A stretch of 64,000 nt of DNA, from the NCBI GenBank assembly GCA_033764955.1, contig JANRIL010000023.1, positions 32,001-96,000 on the forward strand. The letters run 5' to 3'. This DNA comes from Cyanobacteriota bacterium (GTDB taxonomy: Bacteria > Cyanobacteriota > Cyanobacteriia > Thermostichales > Thermostichaceae). Numbering within the stretch: the stretch's first letter is position 1; each line of letters opens with the position of its first letter. Below the pieces are notes generated by a model. That model did no database searches and was not told where the DNA came from. It was given only the letters and a program-made list of their open reading frames with translations. A program made the position numbers and the translations under genes. Below, one piece after another: positions 4,570 through 19,091 of this stretch.

Positions 4570-5388
4570 TCATTCGTGGTGGCTGAAGCGCCGATAGAGA
4601 AAATCAAGAGCATAATTCCGCAGTTCATAATATTCGGGGGTTTCCAAAATTTGGGTGCGTTGGCGGGGTCGTGCAAAAGGGATCTCTAGGATTTCACCAA
4701 TTTTGGCGGCAGGTCCATTGGTCATCATGACCAGCCGATCCGCCAGAAAAAGAGCCTCATCAATATCATGGGTAATCATCAAAATTGTGCAGCGATGATC
4801 CCGCCAAATTTTTAACAATTCTTCCTGCAATTCCTCTTTGGTGATAGCATCTAGCGCCCCAAACGGTTCATCCAATAGCAACACCTGCGGACGAATCGCC
4901 AAAGCGCGAGCAATGGCTACCCGTTGTTTCATACCCCCCGATAACTGGTGAGGACGTTTGTGGGCGGCTTCGCTCAGCCCCACCATCTCCAGGTGCTCTT
5001 TCACAATCGAGCGCCGTTCCAGTATGGACTTTTCCGAGAAAACCTGACTGACCACCAATTCCACATTTTCAAAAGCGGTCAACCAGGGCAGGAGGGCATA
5101 GTTTTGAAAGACCATCATCCGATCTGGCCCCGGTTCGCTAATCGGTTGATCGTTCAAGAGAATGGTTCCACTACTGGGGGTGGAAAAGCCTGCCACCATG
5201 TTCAAGAGGGTGGACTTGCCACAGCCGGAGTGACCGATCATGCAGATCAGTTCTCCCGCCTTCACCGAGAGATTGATGGGATCCAACACCCGCAGATCCC
5301 CGTAGGATTTGGTAACCGATTGAATGTCTAGCAAAGGTTTCACCGACGGATTGGATAAACGAGCCGGAGGGGAAGCGGAGATCAGCAT
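4570..5388 (-). CDS. nrtD: Nitrate ABC transporter ATP-binding subunit D
   Basis: GHSGCGKST, LSGGMKQR, LLDEPFGALD. Start uncertain (ATG 5388 or TTG 5430). Confidence 0.93.
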   Translation of the reverse strand: MLISASPPARLSNPSVKPLLDIQSVTKSYGDLRVLDPINLSVKAGELICMIGHSGCGKSTLLNMVAGFSTPSSGTILLNDQPISEPGPDRMMVFQNYALLPWLTAFENVELVVSQVFSEKSILERRSIVKEHLEMVGLSEAAHKRPHQLSGGMKQRVAIARALAIRPQVLLLDEPFGALDAITKEELQEELLKIWRDHRCTILMITHDIDEALFLADRLVMMTNGPAAKIGEILEIPFARPRQRTQILETPEYYELRNYALDFLYRRFSHHE

Positions 5389-5438
5389 AAGCACCGTTGG
5401 GGGGAGATGGATAGGGGGGACAGAAAGCAAAAGGATCC

Positions 5439-7457
5439 CTAGCTGGGCAGGGCGGCTATGGGATCCATCACCACTTCGGCGATACGAATGTCAAGAGAAA
5501 AGGGCAACGATTGCAGATAGGCTAAGGGATCCTGTCCGTCAAAGCTGGAGCCATCCCCAAAAAGGAGCGCCCCCCGATCGTGCGCCCGATCCGGCAATCC
5601 CAAGTCATGGGCGGCCACCCCATAAACATCTGCCCGCACCACCCGCTCCAGCACCTCCTGCCAATTGCGCGGAAAGGGCGTGATCTGCCAGCGCACCAAT
5701 TGGGTGAGAATCCAAAGGTTTTCCAGGATTTCAGGACAACTATTCCGCCCATTGGCAAACTGGTTAAAGGTCAATACCTGCGGACTGTCCTGCCGCAAGC
5801 TAGGGTAAGGATCCACAAAACCAGGACGGACGTAAAGCGGGTCGGCATTCAGATAGTCAGGACGACAGAGCAGCTCCAGAATTTCTTCCCGATGGTGCGG
5901 CTGATCGCAGTAGTGGCAGGCTTCCAGCAAGGCTTTCACCAACGCCACATGGGTACGGGGATAACGGCTGGCCCATTCTTCCCTTACCCCCAAGACTTTC
6001 TCGATATGACTGGGCAAAATTTCGGGGGTGGTGGTGATCACAAACCCCATCTGATCCAGAACGGCACGTGAATTCCAGGGTTCTCCCACACAATAGCCAT
6101 CCAGATTTCCGGCCTTCAAGTTAGCCACCATTTGGGGAGGAGGAATCACCGTTAAGCTGACATCTTGATCGGGATGAATGCCCCCTCCCGCCAACCAGTG
6201 GCGCAGCAGCAGGTTGTGCATCGAGCCCACATGCACCATCCCCAAGGTAGGCACTTTGTCAGGGGTCTGATGGATAAACTGCCGCAGATCCGCCAGCGTT
6301 TTTACCCCCCGTTCCGCCAGTCGGTTGCTGAGGGTGATTGCGTTGCCGTTACGGGAGAGGGTGAGGGCGGTGACAACATTGACCAGGGATCCCCCCCAGC
6401 CCAGGGTGAGCGCTAGAGGCATCCCCGCCACCATCTGTGCAGCATCCAGGCGTCCAGTCAGGATCCCGTCGGCAATTCCCTTCCAACTGGTTTCACGGCT
6501 AAGGGTAACTTGATCCAATCCATATTTGGCAAACAGCCCCTTTTCCTTAGCCACAATCAGCGGGGCACAGTCGGTGAGGGGAATAAACCCCAACTCCACA
6601 TTCACTTTTTCCAGACCATGTCCGGTCACCACCGCCGGAGCCACCCATTTGCGCCGCTTTAACTGCTTCTGTTGGTTGAGGAAATAGATCATTTCTCCCC
6701 GCAGGCTGTAGTAGCTGGGATGATTGACCACCTCCAGCCGTTGGCGGGGTCGTGGAAAAGGAACCGTTAAGATCTGACCGATATGCGCTTCTGGGCCATT
6801 GGTCAGCATGACAATCCGATCCGATAGCAAAAGGGCTTCATCCACATCGTGGGTGACCATGACGCCGGTGATCTGGCTAGCTTGGCAAATCTGCATCAAC
6901 TGTTCCTGCAAATTGCCCCGTGTTAGCGCATCCAGAGCGCCAAAAGGTTCATCAAGCAGCAGTAGCTTGGGACGGGTCGCCAAAGCACGGGCAATCGCCA
7001 CCCGTTGCTTCATCCCTCCCGATAGGTGAGCCGGACGTTTGTCAGCCGCCGCCTGTAGCCCCACCAGCCGAATATGCTCCTCCACAATCTGAGCGCGCTG
7101 CTCAACTGACTCCTGTTGTAGGACTTCATCTACAGCCAAAGCGATGTTTTCCCTCACCGTTAACCAAGGGAGGAGGGAATAGTTTTGAAAAATCACCATC
7201 CGATCTGGTCCGGGATCGGTCACCTGCCGCCCTTCTAAAATAATGCCTCCGCAGGAGGGCTGATCCAACCCAGCAATTAGATTGAGGAGCGTAGATTTGC
7301 CACAGCCAGAATGACCAATCAGTGAGATAAATTCGCCTTTGTGAATCTTCAGATGGATATTTTTGAGAGCTGTATAAAAACTCCCATCCGCTGAGGGAAA
7401 TACCCGATCAACATGATCCACTTCCAGATAAGGGCGGGATAGCAAAGTAGTGCTCAT
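5439..7457 (-). CDS. nrtC: Nitrate ABC transporter ATP-binding subunit C with NrtA-like regulatory C-terminal domain
   Basis: N-terminal ABC domain plus GFIPLTDCAPL / CVGEPWN substrate-binding-like domain, 672 aa. Confidence 0.95.
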   Translation of the reverse strand: MSTTLLSRPYLEVDHVDRVFPSADGSFYTALKNIHLKIHKGEFISLIGHSGCGKSTLLNLIAGLDQPSCGGIILEGRQVTDPGPDRMVIFQNYSLLPWLTVRENIALAVDEVLQQESVEQRAQIVEEHIRLVGLQAAADKRPAHLSGGMKQRVAIARALATRPKLLLLDEPFGALDALTRGNLQEQLMQICQASQITGVMVTHDVDEALLLSDRIVMLTNGPEAHIGQILTVPFPRPRQRLEVVNHPSYYSLRGEMIYFLNQQKQLKRRKWVAPAVVTGHGLEKVNVELGFIPLTDCAPLIVAKEKGLFAKYGLDQVTLSRETSWKGIADGILTGRLDAAQMVAGMPLALTLGWGGSLVNVVTALTLSRNGNAITLSNRLAERGVKTLADLRQFIHQTPDKVPTLGMVHVGSMHNLLLRHWLAGGGIHPDQDVSLTVIPPPQMVANLKAGNLDGYCVGEPWNSRAVLDQMGFVITTTPEILPSHIEKVLGVREEWASRYPRTHVALVKALLEACHYCDQPHHREEILELLCRPDYLNADPLYVRPGFVDPYPSLRQDSPQVLTFNQFANGRNSCPEILENLWILTQLVRWQITPFPRNWQEVLERVVRADVYGVAAHDLGLPDRAHDRGALLFGDGSSFDGQDPLAYLQSLPFSLDIRIAEVVMDPIAALPS

Positions 7458-13517: not shown

Positions 13518-15515
13518 TTATCTGGGTTTCTCGGTTGGTTCACACAGATAGCTGGCGATGTGTTCGAGGGTGGGGGCTACCAGGAATGGGATGGGGATGA
13601 CCGCTTGCTCTGGCAGGGTTTCGGCAATTTGTCTGAGCATCCGTTGGTGGCGCTGCTGAAGCGACTGTCCAAAACCATCGGAACTATCCAGCCAAATCCG
13701 GTTGATCACTAAATAGGGATGCGGGATCCCCAGATGATCAAGAGCCTGCAAAAGGCGAGTGGTCTCGGCTAAAACCGCCTGTTCGGGGTTGAGGATAGGA
13801 ATAAATGTGACAAAGGTGGGATCCTGTAACTGATCGCGTAACCCGCGCACCTGCTTGAGTAGTCCCCGCAGCCGTTGAGCCAACTCCGGTCGCCCCACCT
13901 GATCTCGATACTTCAACCACAATTTCAGAGCCAAGCTTACCCAGCCTTCCAAGGCTTCCGGCATTTGCAAAAACCGCAGCAGATGCCCAGTGGGAGCCGT
14001 GTCTAGCACCACCAAATCGGAGCCACCCGCCTCCTGTAACACCGTCAATAGCGCCATCACCTCATCCAAGCCGGGAGGAGGCATCTCCAACAACTGCTTC
14101 CAGGCTTGCGGATCGTATTGCACCTCCACACTGCCCGATTCCCCCGCCAAAATAGCCACGATATCGTCCAAATAGTCATGGCGAAATTGCTGCAAAATCA
14201 CCTCGGCATCCACCTCTTGCGCCCACAGGTTAGGCAGGATGGAGATGGGGATTTGGCCTAAGGGAGTTTGAAATAAATCCCCTAAGGAATGAGCCGGATC
14301 AATCGAGACCACCAACACCCGCCGCTCAGGATGTCGCCGTGCTAAACTCCAGGCCAAGGTTCCCGCCATCGTGGTCTTGCCGACTCCCCCTTTGCCCCCC
14401 GTGATCACCAGTGAAATACCTGCCGCCAGCAAATCCGGCAGACGGGATCCCTCCACATCGGGTCGTGAGGGTTCATCAGCAGGCATTTCAGTAGACAAGG
14501 AAGCAGCCGTCGAAAGGGGTTGAAGAGCCTCGCGGGTGAGGGGACGAATCTGCCCCACCAGGGCATCGAGGGCTGAGCTGCCCAGAGGTTCTTGGGTTTG
14601 AAATGGCACCAACCACAAGGGGTAATGGCACAGATCCGCAACCAACTTGTGCAGGATGGGCTGTTGTTCCTGTTGACGAGCCAACCAGACTGCCGACATG
14701 GGCTGCGGACTCTGGGGATCCCTGAGCAGCACTTGATTGACGAGGATCCCGGCTATGGGCACACGGCGCGCCTGCAACTGCTGATCAAACCGCTCGGTTT
14801 CCGCCAAACTGAGGGCTTCGGGAATCATCACCAACCAGGCGGCGGTACTAGCCGGATCTGTCAGTCTTGCCTTGCCCCCTGCCAATTCCGCTTTGAGGGT
14901 GGCTAAAAACGCATCTGCTTGGTCACTACGATAGCTACCTGTCAGGGTGCGGGAAATTTCCTGGTGTTTAGCTTGAAATAGGCTGAAAACCCCTAAAATA
15001 TTATCCAAAAAATCCGGCAGTTCCAGCAGACGTAGCGTGTGTCCAGTGGGCGCAGTATCCAAAATAATTTGATCCGCATCTCCGCTAGCCAATAGGCGGT
15101 TCACCTCCAAAATAGCCATCAATTCGTCCACCCCCGGCCAAGCCAGATCCCAGACGGGCAAGAGATCCTCCCGTTCAAACCAACTGCCTCGCTCCGTCAG
15201 TAACTCTAGAGCCTCTCCATAGGTGGCTTTGAAGCGTTTTAAGAGAGCTTCCGCATCCAAAGCACGGATGGCGAGATTGGGCAGATCCGCAGGGGAAGTC
15301 GCTTGATCGGTAATGGGGATCCCTAAAACATCCCCCAGCGAGTGAGCGGGATCGGTGGAGATCAACAAAATTTTCCGTTCAGGCTGTGATTGAGCCAGTT
15401 GACGGGTGAGGGCGCAGGTAAGAGTAGTTTTGCCCACACCTCCTTTGCCACTCAAGATCAACAATTGACGATCAGGGGCTAGCAATGACATAGATGGGTT
15501 CCAGTCTTCCGACAT
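13518..15515 (-). CDS. ArsA/Get3-family ATPase with two tandem ATPase domains
   Basis: Two copies each of GKGGVGKTT, S(T/I)DPAHSLGD and DTAPTGH. Confidence 0.9.
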   Translation of the reverse strand: MSEDWNPSMSLLAPDRQLLILSGKGGVGKTTLTCALTRQLAQSQPERKILLISTDPAHSLGDVLGIPITDQATSPADLPNLAIRALDAEALLKRFKATYGEALELLTERGSWFEREDLLPVWDLAWPGVDELMAILEVNRLLASGDADQIILDTAPTGHTLRLLELPDFLDNILGVFSLFQAKHQEISRTLTGSYRSDQADAFLATLKAELAGGKARLTDPASTAAWLVMIPEALSLAETERFDQQLQARRVPIAGILVNQVLLRDPQSPQPMSAVWLARQQEQQPILHKLVADLCHYPLWLVPFQTQEPLGSSALDALVGQIRPLTREALQPLSTAASLSTEMPADEPSRPDVEGSRLPDLLAAGISLVITGGKGGVGKTTMAGTLAWSLARRHPERRVLVVSIDPAHSLGDLFQTPLGQIPISILPNLWAQEVDAEVILQQFRHDYLDDIVAILAGESGSVEVQYDPQAWKQLLEMPPPGLDEVMALLTVLQEAGGSDLVVLDTAPTGHLLRFLQMPEALEGWVSLALKLWLKYRDQVGRPELAQRLRGLLKQVRGLRDQLQDPTFVTFIPILNPEQAVLAETTRLLQALDHLGIPHPYLVINRIWLDSSDGFGQSLQQRHQRMLRQIAETLPEQAVIPIPFLVAPTLEHIASYLCEPTEKPR

Positions 15516-15585: not shown

Positions 15586-16707
15586 TTAATAGTCAACTCC
15601 CCGCTTCAAATCTGCCCCCCGCTCAGCATAGTGTTTGTGACAGACCATCTCGGAGTGAACCGAGGCCAGCTCAAAATAGGGAAGCGGAGCATAGCACCGC
15701 CCTGTGATAATGATCTCTGTATCTTTAGGCTTGCGTAGCAACCCTTGCACAATCGGCTCCACTTCTAAAAGTTCCAGATCGACCGTCGGGTTGAGTTCAT
15801 CCATGATAATGGTTTTATAAAGCCCAGAAGCCATCGCCGCCCGTGCCAGTTCCCAGCCTCGCTCCGCTTCTACATAGTCAATTTCCTGCTGCTTGCCTCG
15901 CCAAACAATGGCATCGCGTCCACAGCGTTGGTGATCCACCAGATGGGGGTAACTATCTCGCAATGCCCGAATAGCCGCATCTTCCGTATAGCCGGATCCC
16001 CCTTTTAACCACTGCATAATCAAGACACGGTGAGAGAGGTCTTTGCTGATACCCCGCCCAATCGCTTGCAGGGCACGTCCTAGGGCACTTGTCGATTTTC
16101 CTTTACCTCCCCCCGTATAAATCTCAATGCCACTGTCATAACCATTGCTTTCGGGACGGCGCAGGCTTCGCATCTCGGAGTGGAGATCGGCTAACTCGAT
16201 GATGGCCGGTGGCGCGCCCCGACCTGTGATGATCACCTCCATTTCCTCTGGTTTCTGCCGGAGAGTACCCACTACCTCTTCAACGGGCAGCAAGCCCAGA
16301 TCCAGCACGGGATTGAGTTCGTCTAGCACCACCACCGAATAGAAACCGGAGGCAATCGCTCCTTTGGCCACATCCCAGCCACGGCGAGCTTCTTGCCGAT
16401 CAAATTTGGTGATGGCTTCCGGGCCAAAAAATTCTCCTCGTCCCGTCCGTAGTTGGTCGATCAGGTGAGGGAAACCCCGTTGCAGCGCCGCGATAGCGGA
16501 GTCTTCGGCATATTGACGACCTGGCCCTTTTAAGAATCGTACTAGCAAGACACGGCTGGGGGCAGCGTTTTCGATCCCCAAGCCAATCGAGCGCAAGACC
16601 ACACCCAACGCCGCCTGGGACTTGCCTTTGCCCTCGCCATCATAAACATGGATTTGTCCACGACGGCGATTTTGAGATTGGGCGGTAAGAATGCCAACTT
16701 CTGCCAT
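15586..16707 (-). CDS. cobO: Cob(I)yrinic acid a,c-diamide adenosyltransferase, internally duplicated cyanobacterial form
   Basis: Two domains: YDGEGKGKS...VLDELN...ITGR and YTGGGKGKST...MDELN...ITGR, ending RGVDY. Confidence 0.9.
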   Translation of the reverse strand: MAEVGILTAQSQNRRRGQIHVYDGEGKGKSQAALGVVLRSIGLGIENAAPSRVLLVRFLKGPGRQYAEDSAIAALQRGFPHLIDQLRTGRGEFFGPEAITKFDRQEARRGWDVAKGAIASGFYSVVVLDELNPVLDLGLLPVEEVVGTLRQKPEEMEVIITGRGAPPAIIELADLHSEMRSLRRPESNGYDSGIEIYTGGGKGKSTSALGRALQAIGRGISKDLSHRVLIMQWLKGGSGYTEDAAIRALRDSYPHLVDHQRCGRDAIVWRGKQQEIDYVEAERGWELARAAMASGLYKTIIMDELNPTVDLELLEVEPIVQGLLRKPKDTEIIITGRCYAPLPYFELASVHSEMVCHKHYAERGADLKRGVDY

Positions 16708-16888
16708 AGGGAGCATAATCCTGCTATATCACAAGGAATACCACCATTACCCAGTCTGTACTAGGCAGACTGAAGCAAGGGCTGTCACCACCATCTTAGA
16801 GCTTGTCAGCCGTTGCCACTACTGACCGCCCCAAGAGTAGCCACCTACGATGCCAGGGATCCCTATGCTGGTTACAGAACATCTACTA

Positions 16889-17896
16889 CTAATGATTTTC
16901 AGTAATGCGCTTGAGGGGAAGATAAAGAACGTGATCGCTGCCACTGCCCACAGGTTGTTGGGATCCCAGGCTGACTTTTTGTTGTTCTAGCCACAAAAGC
17001 AAGGATTGATGCTCAGGATAATATTCAAAGATGTAGTTTATAAAGTCCTCAATAGTGCAAGGTTTATTGGTTCCTCCCATCCATTGATGAAAGTGATTAT
17101 GAATTTCTGAGCTTAACGTGATCAAGTTGCTTAAGCTAGCGGCAATCTTAGGATAGTAAGCTTCTGAATAGAGATGATGGACAGTAAGACTGTGACATAT
17201 CATTCTTGTTACCTTGCAAAGATTTTTATCTCGTTTCTTAGCTAATTTTTTAGCCCATTCAATTTCTTTGTGCCTTGCTTCAATCTGCTTGATAATGAGA
17301 TCAATCTGAGGGCTAATTCTCTCGGCAACGTCACGACACCATTCTTTGCGATTTGCCTGGGTAATCAGGTCTCTCATCCCTATGGCAATGTTATAAATTC
17401 CCAACCGCGAAATATAAACATTCTCAGAACCAGCAAAACGAGTGTAGTGAATATCTTGGATCATCAGATTTTTTGCTATTAAACTCTTAATGATTTTGTT
17501 GAAGTAATCGCGTCGTGTACCCAAGATAGCAATAACATCTGAAACAGACAGCCAATAATCATCCTGACGACGAATCAAGGAAGTGCTGTTACCCAAAATT
17601 TTATGATCGACAAATGCTCGTTGGGTATGCTTTTTCTTATCAACAAACCATTTTTTTATATCTTTAGGATCGGGATTAATAAAATCTGGGTGTGCCTTCA
17701 AATAAAGATAGATGGCATGGGCACCCGTTTGGGTGTATTCTCGAACCTTATTGACTACTCGATAATCCTTGCCTTTGATTAACTCCCATTTGTCATCAGG
17801 GATCCGATCAAACTCTTCCTCAATCTGCTTGAGTTGCTCTAAGCTTATTTTCAAAAAATCTGCCAATTTATTAGAGGAAACAAAAACTATTGCCAT
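16889..17896 (-). CDS. HNH endonuclease-domain protein with putative N-terminal DNA-binding domains
   Basis: C-terminal RDKNLC...VHHLYS...P...SNLITL...IHNHFH. AT-rich; start overlaps the upstream gene's end by 10 bp. Confidence 0.75.
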   Translation of the reverse strand: MAIVFVSSNKLADFLKISLEQLKQIEEEFDRIPDDKWELIKGKDYRVVNKVREYTQTGAHAIYLYLKAHPDFINPDPKDIKKWFVDKKKHTQRAFVDHKILGNSTSLIRRQDDYWLSVSDVIAILGTRRDYFNKIIKSLIAKNLMIQDIHYTRFAGSENVYISRLGIYNIAIGMRDLITQANRKEWCRDVAERISPQIDLIIKQIEARHKEIEWAKKLAKKRDKNLCKVTRMICHSLTVHHLYSEAYYPKIAASLSNLITLSSEIHNHFHQWMGGTNKPCTIEDFINYIFEYYPEHQSLLLWLEQQKVSLGSQQPVGSGSDHVLYLPLKRITENH

Positions 17897-18513
17897 TGCT
17901 CAAATTTCTCCGTTAAACTTTTATAGTAGATATTTATTTTCTGAAAGATCTTATCGTCTCCGGTATTAGGAATATCAGGATGATAAATTTTACTCAGGTT
18001 GCGATAGGCAGTTTTAATGTCTTCATCCGTTGCTTTTTCAGGATCTAAGCCAAAAACACGCCAAGGCAAATCATACTTAAAGATATTGATGCCATTGATG
18101 CAGCCATATCCAACTTCCCCCTCTTCCTCTGGCAAAACTCCAATCAGTCGACGATAGATTTTTTTACAATCTTCGGGATCCGAAAGACTCAATTTGCCCA
18201 GGCCGCTGCTGGCGAGCTTAAAGCTTCCTGATTTCTTTAATTCTGTAGCATTAGCAACTTCAAAATGCTGATAGATAGCTTTCTGAAGTTCTTTGATGGA
18301 GAGCGGTTGGGGTGGATAAACCTGCCGCAGAATAAACTGAGAAAATGCTTCTAGAGTTGCCCGTGGGAGGTCAGAGGTTGTGACCAGCCTTTCAATTTCA
18401 GTCTGAACGGCAGCTATTACCGCGGCATGAGGAACTACCGTAGGGGTCTTGCTGGTGGATTTTGAGGCTGTGGATTTGGGCTTTGAGCTAGCAGATTTTT
18501 TGGTGGCGGGCAC
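17887..18513 (-). CDS. Protein with a C-terminal DnaJ J-domain
   Basis: PWRVFGLDPEKATDEDIKTAYRNLSKIYHPD...FQKINIYYKSL with intact HPD. GTG start preceded by a strong AGGAGG Shine-Dalgarno. Confidence 0.85.
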   Translation of the reverse strand: MPATKKSASSKPKSTASKSTSKTPTVVPHAAVIAAVQTEIERLVTTSDLPRATLEAFSQFILRQVYPPQPLSIKELQKAIYQHFEVANATELKKSGSFKLASSGLGKLSLSDPEDCKKIYRRLIGVLPEEEGEVGYGCINGINIFKYDLPWRVFGLDPEKATDEDIKTAYRNLSKIYHPDIPNTGDDKIFQKINIYYKSLTEKFEQWQ

Positions 18514-18617
18514 AACTCCTCCTGAATAAGAGATCCCAACTCAACACACATGTTTTGCCTATTGAACAAGGATAATCCAAGTTCAGAGTTGAGCCTAGCT
18601 TTTCAGATTGAATTCAA

Positions 18618-18902
18618 CTATTTCGATTCAAACTGATAGCCTAAATCCTTCAATAATCCTGGAGAACGCCACTAATGGGGTCACACACGCACAAATAACT
18701 CTAGATAAATCTTCCCAGCTACTAACTTTTGCATTTGTAGGCGAGCATTGTGTCCGATCGTTTTCAACATATCCCCTTTCTTGCCAATTAAACTCGCCTT
18801 TTGCGATTCCCGCTCGACGGTGATCGTGGCTAAAACTCCCGTCAGCGTGGGGGACTCTTCCCCCTGATTAACAGTGACCGCTACCGAGTGGGGAATCTTT
18901 TC
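18618..18902 (-). pseudogene. era: Decayed 3' fragment of GTPase Era (KH domain)
   Basis: EKIPHSVAV...LATITVERESQKASLIGKKGDMLKTIG...KIYLELFVRV*PH*WRSPGLLKDLGYQFESK*. Matches the Era C-terminus, with two in-frame stops and no GTPase domain upstream. Confidence 0.85.
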
Positions 18903-19091
18903 AAAGCCAGAACGAAATCCGGCTGGTGCGACAGGAATGGAATAGGGGATCCCCTCACCCTCTGACCCCAGTGAGGAGAAGTTCAGTAGTTCGGTCATGG
19001 ACAGAGCTACATTTAGAAGTCCTATGCCACCTCGTGGGTAGAGGCAGGCAGGGGATCCCTACCTCGGAGGAATCAGGGCGAGTCACAGTAC

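Follow-up and report, generated by a model that had tools for sequence, protein, structure and literature searches.

We analysed a window of 64,000 nucleotides (nt) of DNA from a cyanobacterium of the family Thermostichaceae (assembly GCA_033764955.1, contig JANRIL010000023.1, positions 32,001 to 96,000 of the forward strand) and describe in it a cassette of two genes, here called J and H. They lie head to tail on the minus strand, J at 17887-18513 and H at 16889-17896 of the window, and encode a J-domain protein and a protein with an HNH nuclease core. That J and H are an obligate, translationally coupled pair and not a chance adjacency is well supported by our results, and we regard the cassette as a small, mobile module in which a nuclease has a partner not described before. 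We suggest, with a probability of roughly 45%, that it is a horizontally mobile conflict module, used in defence or addiction, whose nuclease a dedicated J-adaptor would present to the host DnaK. Neither the full-text literature (supplementary files aside) nor PADLOC, Pfam, NCBIfam or PHROG yielded a description of a J-domain/HNH pair. A preliminary description of this DNA, made from the sequence alone, knew of no named system with this pairing, and our searches of PADLOC 2.0 and of full-text articles agree with that statement.

Occurrence of the pair in cyanobacterial genomes

Our close sample comprised 41 genomes, which are the window's own and 40 relatives. Full-length H was found in eight of them, the window's genome included, and a J orthologue in the identical eight, with J directly upstream of H at every fetched locus. 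The wide sample of 301 cyanobacterial genomes of the same class, covering 143 genera, gives a similar picture. J is present in 59 of these genomes (42 genera) and H in 63 (45 genera), both are found in 57, and H lies directly downstream on the same strand for 63 of the 65 J matches. J alone was found twice, once as a gene with an internal stop and once in a genome of just 61% completeness, and in the six genomes with H alone the matches are without exception fragmentary, or weak and partial. Intact H without J was not seen among the 301 genomes. The preliminary description had reckoned with the possibility that the two genes rarely co-occur, and these counts contradict it. A pattern-based locus search of genome contigs with H returned 124 pattern matches, none of which was confirmed, and the relatives were found by genome search instead.

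The spacing of the two genes is also well preserved. At 26 of the 27 loci compared below, the J-H intergenic gap lies between -16 and +26 nt, and two relatives show the same overlap of 10 nt that is found in the window. Some genomes hold two J-H pairs (G117, G220, G136, G183 and G086). In G117 and G220 the two copies come from different deep clades, which would fit variants that do not cross-react.

Shifting loci, mixed trees and decay

The neighbourhoods of 27 loci from 26 genomes were compared over ~8 kb on each side. J and H are the only genes common to all 27 loci, and the next most frequent neighbour cluster is found in just four. None of the genes flanking the pair in the window stands beside it elsewhere, except for RecN, which is ~3 kb away in one locus. 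Both genes have a lower GC content than their flanks in 26 of the 27 loci. The J and H trees show the same three main clades, for example a clade of 12 rows with support values of 98/97 (J) and 100/99 (H), and the host families are mixed across the clades. Two genomes hold copies from different clades. When the window's genome is compared with the same relatives, identity is 56-57% for H and 66-67% for J, against 88.6-90.1% for the neighbouring CobO-like gene.

The pair is also found in states of decay. In four genomes (G006, G202, G234 and G262, judged by search coordinates) H is cut short, divided or interrupted by 1.5-2.6 kb, and the J match next to it runs through without a break; of the four, G006 alone is also visible in the analysis of open reading frames (ORFs). 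The reverse was seen in one genome only. H is thus more often broken than J, and this is the direction that is expected if H is the harmful partner. Taken together, the shifting loci, the mixing in the trees, the low GC content, the divergence and the decay rule out a vertically inherited core pair. Conservation at one core locus had been considered in the preliminary description and is contradicted by the flanks, which differ across the 27 loci. The observations suit an accessory module whose two genes travel together and which genomes acquire, lose and exchange.

In three relatives of one genus (L025:5594-11966, L026:5427-11491 and L027:6103-11441) the pair lies within a shared block of ~5.4-6.4 kb. 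The block has 86-87% nt identity to the third relative and also contains a tyrosine recombinase gene convergent with H, and an ORF of 463 amino acids (aa) without a Pfam match. Synteny between L025 and L026 extends over all of the 20 kb, and the flanks differ only against L027. The block could be an integrative island or a mere rearrangement breakpoint. No tRNA genes were found near the pair in three relatives. An empty-site comparison did not delimit the insertion, as none of the family relatives with the CobO-like neighbour has the window's flanking genes within 1.5 kb of it.

The H protein and its nuclease core

The predicted model of H has a predicted local distance difference test score (pLDDT) of 95.3 and a predicted template modelling score (pTM) of 0.87. 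The C-terminal part of the protein is the HNH core (Table 1), in which the motif reads C227...H240 H241...N257...H266..F269 H270...C280. C227, H240, H241, N257, H266 and H270 do not vary among 44 H sequences, and F269 and C280 are at least 90% conserved, in a family whose mean column identity over the 44 sequences is 31%. This agrees with the residues typical of HNH nucleases, namely a His as general base, an Asn, a metal-binding His and Cys/His ligands of zinc. The model places the strands 237-241 and 258-262 before a helix at 263-272. In structural alignments with VIA-align, the core matched the nuclease of EcoKMcrA (6ghc) with Z 6.7, a root-mean-square deviation (rmsd) of 3.5 and 82 aligned residues, the GVE2 HNH with Z 6.3 and the HNH domains of IscB, Cas9 and Cap5 with Z 5.4-6.0. 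All VIA-align Z values for H are below 8, so that the fold evidence alone is moderate and may reflect the shared HNH core only.

Besides this fold evidence, we assign H as a nuclease because of its PHROG matches, its invariant catalytic residues and its distant relatives. Residues 201-295 match the HNH families phrog_119 (E-value 1.9e-6), phrog_144 (1.6e-5), phrog_8048 and phrog_5956 (E-values up to 5e-4). Distant relatives that match H in the nuclease region only pass the Pfam cut-offs of HNH or HNH_2. The protein in the window itself is below threshold for HNH_2, with 13.2 bits against a cut-off of 21, and HNH_2 is matched at E<=0.05 in 11 of the 44 H-family members. The HNH motif reported in the preliminary description is borne out by the conserved catalytic residues.

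Two winged-helix domains precede the nuclease core. The first is MerR-like, and its matches include the DNA-binding domain of pSK1 Par (Z 6.2, rmsd 2.0, 53 aligned), RacA (Z 5.9) and the MerR family (Z 5.7); residues 1-73 align to CbpM (3ucs_B) with Z 5.0 and rmsd 3.0 over 61 residues. The second domain matches Ski-like proteins (Z 5.2), the ParA2 N-terminus (Z 5.1) and Dachshund (Z 4.9). The single helix that follows is a possible coiled coil or dimerisation element, judged from the model.

A Foldseek search of the whole H protein against PDB gave nothing at E<=0.001, so the domain matches come from VIA-align alone, and the H profile found only chance-level matches among the sequences of solved structures (best E-value 0.033). 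A viral fold search gave phage HNH, NinG and Bro-like proteins, all weak with a template modelling (TM) score of ~0.2. With the family profile of H, 879 proteins are matched at E<=1e-3, of which 57 reach E<=1e-30. Fused or longer forms of 635-2000 aa were not found at E<=1e-10, which is weak evidence, and the longest H-family proteins (445-468 aa) have extra C-terminal residues without a J-domain. In public records, family members are named 'hypothetical protein' and 'DnaJ domain-containing protein'. Several records of Synechococcus elongatus (for example AZB72131.1 and QFZ92202.2) list an H-family member as a hypothetical protein.

The J protein

The preliminary description had seen a Lys/Ser-rich N-terminal tail and a C-terminal J-domain with HPD in J, and both are borne out. 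J matches the J-domain family PF00226 at residues 153-202 with 40.3 bits, which passes the cut-off of 27.8, and all 44 J-family members match it as well. H178, P179 and D180, in the loop between helices II and III, are invariant in 44 of 44 J sequences. The fold agrees, with a Foldseek probability of 1.00 and rmsd values of 1.9-2.2 A over 54-56 residues against several solved J-domains. VIA-align gave Z 6-7.8, and the J-domains of HscB, auxilin and T antigen are among the matches. A search with J finds 440 homologues at E<=1e-3, and each named one is cyanobacterial. J is not an orthologue of CbpA, as the NCBIfam model of the curved-DNA-binding protein gives 17.9 bits against a cut-off of 403. 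Three DnaK paralogues are present in the host genome.

The basic tail is variable in length and missing in some homologues in the alignment of 44. The N-domain between tail and J-domain is conserved, and much of GYGCINGINIFKYDLPW, the segment directly before the J-domain, is invariant in the 44 J-family sequences. The N-domain fold matched its own family only in the Atlas search, and searches of PDB were without a match but barely tested this domain. The sole lead on its fold (~28-147) are weak HHD_RTEL1 matches in 8 of the 44 members, with a best E-value of 3.8e-4. The RTEL1 harmonin-homology domain is a helical protein-binding module.

Predicted complex of J and H

The predicted J-H complex reached a score of 0.70 (runs with 0.70, 0.71 and 0.57), and the best of three controls reached 0.01. 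The preliminary description had proposed a complex prediction of the pair with DnaK, and the outcome for the pair itself supports binding. The same score mark is reached by 116 of 157 solved complexes and by 2 of 215 mismatched pairs, a calibration that is only rough because our own alignments were used. The runs agree in at least 96% of the contacts, and the pLDDT of the partner is at least 84. On J, the predicted interface consists of residues 95-103, 148-152, 158-159 and 195-208, which cover a portion of the N-domain and the DLPW segment as well as the C-terminal tail and the last part of helix III. On H, it consists of residues 118-168 in the second winged helix and residues 191-196 at the start of the long helix.

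Helix II (163-177) and the HPD motif (178-180) lie outside the predicted interface. It is this helix II/HPD face of a J-domain that docks on Hsp70. The prediction thus supports direct binding of J and H with the DnaK-binding face left free. As the predicted interface differs from that of CbpM and CbpA, the only solved example of a J-domain with a MerR-like protein bound to it, the positive prediction is unlikely to be a mere recall of that solved structure.

Organisation of the cassette and its surroundings

The two ORFs, their positions and their overlap, as given in the preliminary description, were confirmed on the minus strand, and so was the Shine-Dalgarno sequence before the GTG of J. 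The features of the cassette are listed in Table 1.

Table 1. Coordinates of the features of the J-H cassette and of the adjoining era remnant in the 64-kb window.
Feature	Position	Strand	Basis and remarks
J gene	17887..18513	-	ORF, 208 aa, GTG start; type III J-domain protein
H gene	16889..17896	-	ORF, 335 aa, ATG start; two winged-helix domains, long helix and HNH domain
Shine-Dalgarno sequence AGGAGGAG	18516..18523	-	Read in the sequence; ends 2 nt before the GTG of J
J/H overlap, 10 nt, ATGGCAATAG	17887..17896	-	H start codon within the end of J (translational coupling)
J residues 1-27, basic Lys/Ser/Thr/Pro-rich tail, predicted disordered	18433..18513	-	pLDDT <50 for residues 1-26
J residues 28-147, conserved helical N-domain ending in near-invariant GYGCINGINIFKYDLPW	18073..18432	-	Alignment A3; pLDDT ~77-85
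J residues 150-205, J-domain	17899..18066	-	Helix II 163-177, HPD 178-180 (nt 17974-17982), helix III 187-201
H residues 1-71, MerR-like winged helix-turn-helix domain 1	17684..17896	-	VIA-align matches
H residues 98-177, second winged-helix domain	17366..17605	-	VIA-align; bears most of the predicted J-binding surface
H residues 181-222, single 42-residue helix	17231..17356	-	DSSP on the model
H residues 225-285, HNH (beta-beta-alpha-metal) nuclease core	17042..17224	-	Conservation, model, VIA-align, PHROG
Decayed partial era GTPase duplicate	18549..19060	-	Context, outside the module; starts 36 nt before the J start codon

In the window's own genome, J and H each have one copy. The low GC content noted in the preliminary description was confirmed, as the cassette has 40.3% GC (J 43.2%, H 38.5%) compared to a genome mean of 51.5% with a standard deviation of 4.3%. 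The background was taken from 18,642 windows of equal length in the host genome of 3.8 Mb. The cassette ranks in the lowest 1.65% of these and is the minimum of the 64-kb window. The octamer palindrome GGGATCCC is found in 92 copies in the 64-kb window, ~1 per 700 nt, compared to 2.7 copies expected from shuffles, and it resembles a lineage-specific counterpart of the cyanobacterial HIP1 repeat GCGATCGC. The preliminary description had pointed out its scarcity in the cassette. This did not hold up, with one copy in 1,625 nt against ~2.3 expected and longer GGGATCCC-free gaps elsewhere in the window, and we rejected the shortage as a sign of foreign origin since the depletion is not significant.

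The sequence upstream of J is a remnant of a decayed era duplicate. Its part 18549-18903 is 90.4% identical to C41:5670-6024 and its part 18903-19060 is 81.5% identical to C41:4895-5067, where contig C41 carries the intact era gene (4895-6024). The remnant is without ~600 nt of the GTPase domain, and its 3' end is frame-shifted. The cassette may be transcribed from the leftover upstream region of era, or the era sequence may have been carried along with the cassette. No promoter-like site above chance was found between the era remnant and J, and in a scan for promoters and terminators the counts were not above those of shuffles. In a search for a shared operator or promoter motif upstream of J at the 27 loci, only the generic repeat GCGATCGC recurs.

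The downstream neighbour (15586-16716, minus strand) encodes 376 aa with two tandem CobA/CobO/BtuR corrinoid adenosyltransferase domains. This CobO-like gene is found in 20 of 22 family relatives with 84-90% identity, and its flanks are syntenic in none. Further on, an ORF of 665 aa (13518-15515, minus strand) has two GKGGVGKTT P-loop motifs and, judged by its translation alone, looks like a duplicated ArsA/Get3-type ATPase.

Discussion

In the mechanism that we propose, H would be a DNA-binding HNH endonuclease and J its dedicated adaptor. J would hold H through the back of the J-domain, that is helix III and the C-terminal tail, and through part of its N-domain. The free helix II and the HPD motif could then dock on one of the three host DnaKs and trigger ATP hydrolysis, by which DnaK might remodel H between a latent and an active nuclease, or from a DNA-bound to a free state. 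The nuclease would be the effector and the chaperone link its gate, either in anti-phage defence or as an addiction-type toxin. The view of J as an adaptor that hands H to DnaK is taken by analogy with type III J-proteins that serve a single client, such as HscB with IscU and auxilin with clathrin, and with the action of DnaJ/DnaK on RepA and lambda P. We suggest a role in conflict because the pair shows an accessory, mobile and decaying biology, because the catalytic residues are invariant and because H is more often broken than J. The pair also has the layout of a type II toxin-antitoxin system, with two small, co-directional and coupled genes that are mobile and patchy. Our data show that the pairing is obligate and mobile, which domains the two proteins have and that the HPD and catalytic residues are conserved; J-H binding is supported by the predicted complex, and the dependence on DnaK, the way in which the switch would run and the role in conflict are inferred.

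The gene neighbourhoods show only a weak association with defence genes. The neighbour scan covered 143 of 161 candidate ORFs at 24 loci, and its results are raw counts without a background rate. At 9 of the 24 loci there is at least one neighbour with a Pfam family of the mobile, toxin-antitoxin or defence type (integrase, transposase, toxin-antitoxin, TIR, HEPN or nuclease-type). Nine of the 143 neighbour ORFs match PADLOC models, mostly generic ones such as ABC ATPase, histidine kinase and cysteine desulfurase. One neighbour, directly downstream of H at L087:9755-10516, is a DUF429 protein that matches PDC-S44 with an E-value of 2e-108.

Several of our results weigh against a conflict module. 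The neighbours are mostly housekeeping genes with metabolic, transport and regulatory functions, and a specific PADLOC candidate (PDC-S44, PDC-S09 or PDC-S29) stands beside the pair at only 3 of the 24 loci. In PADLOC-DB 2.0, J matches no family and H only E1-E2, with an E-value of 0.034 and 11 bits. J is far more conserved than H, with a mean column identity of 54% over 44 sequences compared to 31%, which is unusual for a simple antitoxin. The predicted interface is less conserved than the rest of H (mean information 1.46 vs 1.90, permutation p 0.995) and shows no enrichment on J (2.86 vs 3.12, p 0.89). The pair was not found in 72,556 plasmids (searched with H and J), in 50,697 phage records (searched with H) or in the IMG/VR contigs searched (with a J alignment), so no transfer vehicle was found in these collections. 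No convincing terminal or direct repeats were found flanking the cassette.

A more specific version of the proposed mechanism is that J keeps a latent HNH nuclease bound to DnaK, so that the state of the nuclease would depend on spare chaperone capacity. Should the making of phage proteins, or proteotoxic stress, draw DnaK away or flood it with clients, the nuclease would change its state and cut DNA, which would abort the infection, and the pair would be a chaperone-guard module of immunity or addiction. The preliminary description had likewise suggested phage-driven chaperone stress as a possible trigger. We regard this version as rather doubtful. If it were true, about a fifth of the cyanobacterial genomes sampled would harbour the first conflict system in which the effector brings along a J-domain adaptor of its own for reading host proteostasis.

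Meaningless adjacency of two unrelated genes in one operon is practically negligible as an explanation, given the 63 of 65 J matches with H downstream, the congruent trees, the status of J and H as the sole genes shared by the 27 loci and the positive complex prediction. More has to be said about the possibility that the cassette is a selfish mobility module. H would then be an HNH endonuclease of the free-standing homing type, whose cuts let the cassette spread by repair copying, and J would recruit DnaK to free product-bound H or to aid the turnover of a repair complex, much as plasmid RepA and lambda P of the phage make use of DnaJ/DnaK. The four phage HNH families of PHROG are the best sequence matches of H, and the viral fold search also points to phage HNH, NinG and Bro-like proteins, but these structural matches are weak. 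The patchy pair of low GC content, which stands alone among housekeeping genes at many sites, would suit such an element, and the decayed era copy abutting the cassette is a trace that would be expected of flank co-conversion. A homing endonuclease should however have a target, and no common insertion site or target gene is seen at the 27 loci, where no neighbour occurs in more than four. The pair is moreover single-copy in the window's genome, reaches two copies at most elsewhere and is not found in the searched phage and viral collections. We think that homing is unlikely.

It is quite unlikely, in our opinion, that H is a McrA-like restriction-type nuclease which acts alone on foreign or modified DNA through an N-terminal DNA reader and the HNH domain, with J as a mere private helper in folding or solubility and without any gate. 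This idea draws on the structural matches of the nuclease domain, which are led by modification-dependent enzymes of the same layout (6ghc with Z 6.7, 6yex with 5.6 and 6ghs with 5.3), and no conserved methyltransferase stands beside the pair, as a type IV enzyme would predict. Z values below 8 may however mean no more than a shared HNH core, and the N-terminal domains of H are unlike those of McrA, SRA and other known readers. The near-perfect linkage to J, and the conservation of J over its full length including the unique N-domain, suggest more than a folding aid. Distinctly improbable is a stress module like CbpA/CbpM, in which J would be a co-chaperone associated with DNA via its basic tail, and H would modulate J as a MerR-like DNA-binding regulator or a nucleoid protein, with the module serving DNA repair or adaptation to stress. 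As in cbpA-cbpM, the gene of the J-protein comes first and that of the MerR-like protein second, the first domain of H aligns to CbpM (Z 5.0) and to MerR regulators, and the neighbours are mainly housekeeping genes. CbpM is also a MerR-like binder of a J-domain (PMC4063869), but it covers HPD, while the predicted J-H interface uses the second winged helix and leaves HPD and helix II free. The J-domain here is C-terminal and the CbpA model gives 17.9 bits instead of 403. A regulator needs no invariant set of HNH catalytic residues, and patchiness (57 of 301 genomes), decay and shifting loci are ill-suited to stress housekeeping.

Returning to the conflict module as our preferred reading, its wider interest lies in the choice of Hsp70 clients. 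J-domain proteins choose these clients, and a J-adaptor dedicated to a nuclease and travelling with it as a mobile pair would be a new bacterial use of this principle. If the pair serves in defence or addiction, it would represent a new sensing principle in immunity, in which the chaperone system is read via a private adaptor, so far hinted at only by the DnaJ dependence of bNACHT25. The pair is common, with 57 of 301 genomes and 42-45 of 143 genera, and Synechococcus elongatus, which is tractable in the laboratory, may carry the module to judge by its records. As a minimal outcome, our study adds a confident model and a predicted interface for a J-HNH pair that is conserved and so far uncharacterised, and thereby gives a name and a hypothesis to two widespread families of hypothetical proteins.

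Comparison with known systems

A known system of similar organisation is CbpA-CbpM of E. coli (PDB 3UCS), which is also a two-gene operon with the J-protein first and a MerR-like winged-helix protein second. In CbpA-CbpM the second protein binds the J-domain, and for H such binding is predicted. CbpM is MerR-like and binds the J-domain of CbpA over the DnaK-binding face, including the His of HPD, so that it competes with DnaK (PMC4063869). In the predicted J-H complex, in contrast, HPD is outside the interface, and contact is made via the second winged helix of H and not via its CbpM-like first domain. Further differences are the C-terminal position of the J-domain, the unique N-domain of J and the HNH core of H, which CbpM does not have. 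The J-H pair is also cyanobacterial and patchy.

Among nucleases, EcoKMcrA (Z 6.7), TagI (6ghs, Z 5.3) and VcaM4I (6yex, Z 5.6) combine an N-terminal DNA-binding region with a C-terminal HNH domain and are the top structural matches of the H nuclease. Their reader domains differ from those of H, H is below the HNH_2 threshold, and we know of no J-domain partner for any of the three. The free-standing phage HNH endonucleases (PHROG 119, 144, 8048 and 5956) are the best sequence-profile matches of H residues 201-295. Here it is the nuclease core alone that matches; in addition, the pair is not in the searched phage records and has no common insertion target.

The published account of bNACHT25 reports that its phage sensing requires host DnaJ (PMC12169576), and a bacterial immune protein that reads infection via DnaK/DnaJ is a precedent for our proposal. 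bNACHT25 differs in relying on the host's own DnaJ without a J-domain partner gene, and its effector and sensor families are unrelated to J and H. In the portion of the text consulted, a 2020 eLife paper on conflict systems has the DnaJ domain only as a fusion to FNIII-repeat proteins, in GTPase-HSP70 systems (PMC7159879).

In J-proteins with a single client, such as HscB with IscU, auxilin with clathrin and the viral T-antigens, a J-domain and a private client-binding part hand one partner to Hsp70. None of their clients is known to be a nuclease, and none of these J-proteins is known to form a mobile two-gene module. In the mycobacterial toxin-antitoxin-chaperone (TAC) systems, HigBA is combined with a SecB-like chaperone, and a harmful effector is thereby tied to a chaperone in a small mobile operon. 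While TAC systems have three genes, including the SecB-homologous chaperone, the J-H cassette makes do with two, and with an adaptor only it would borrow DnaK from its host.

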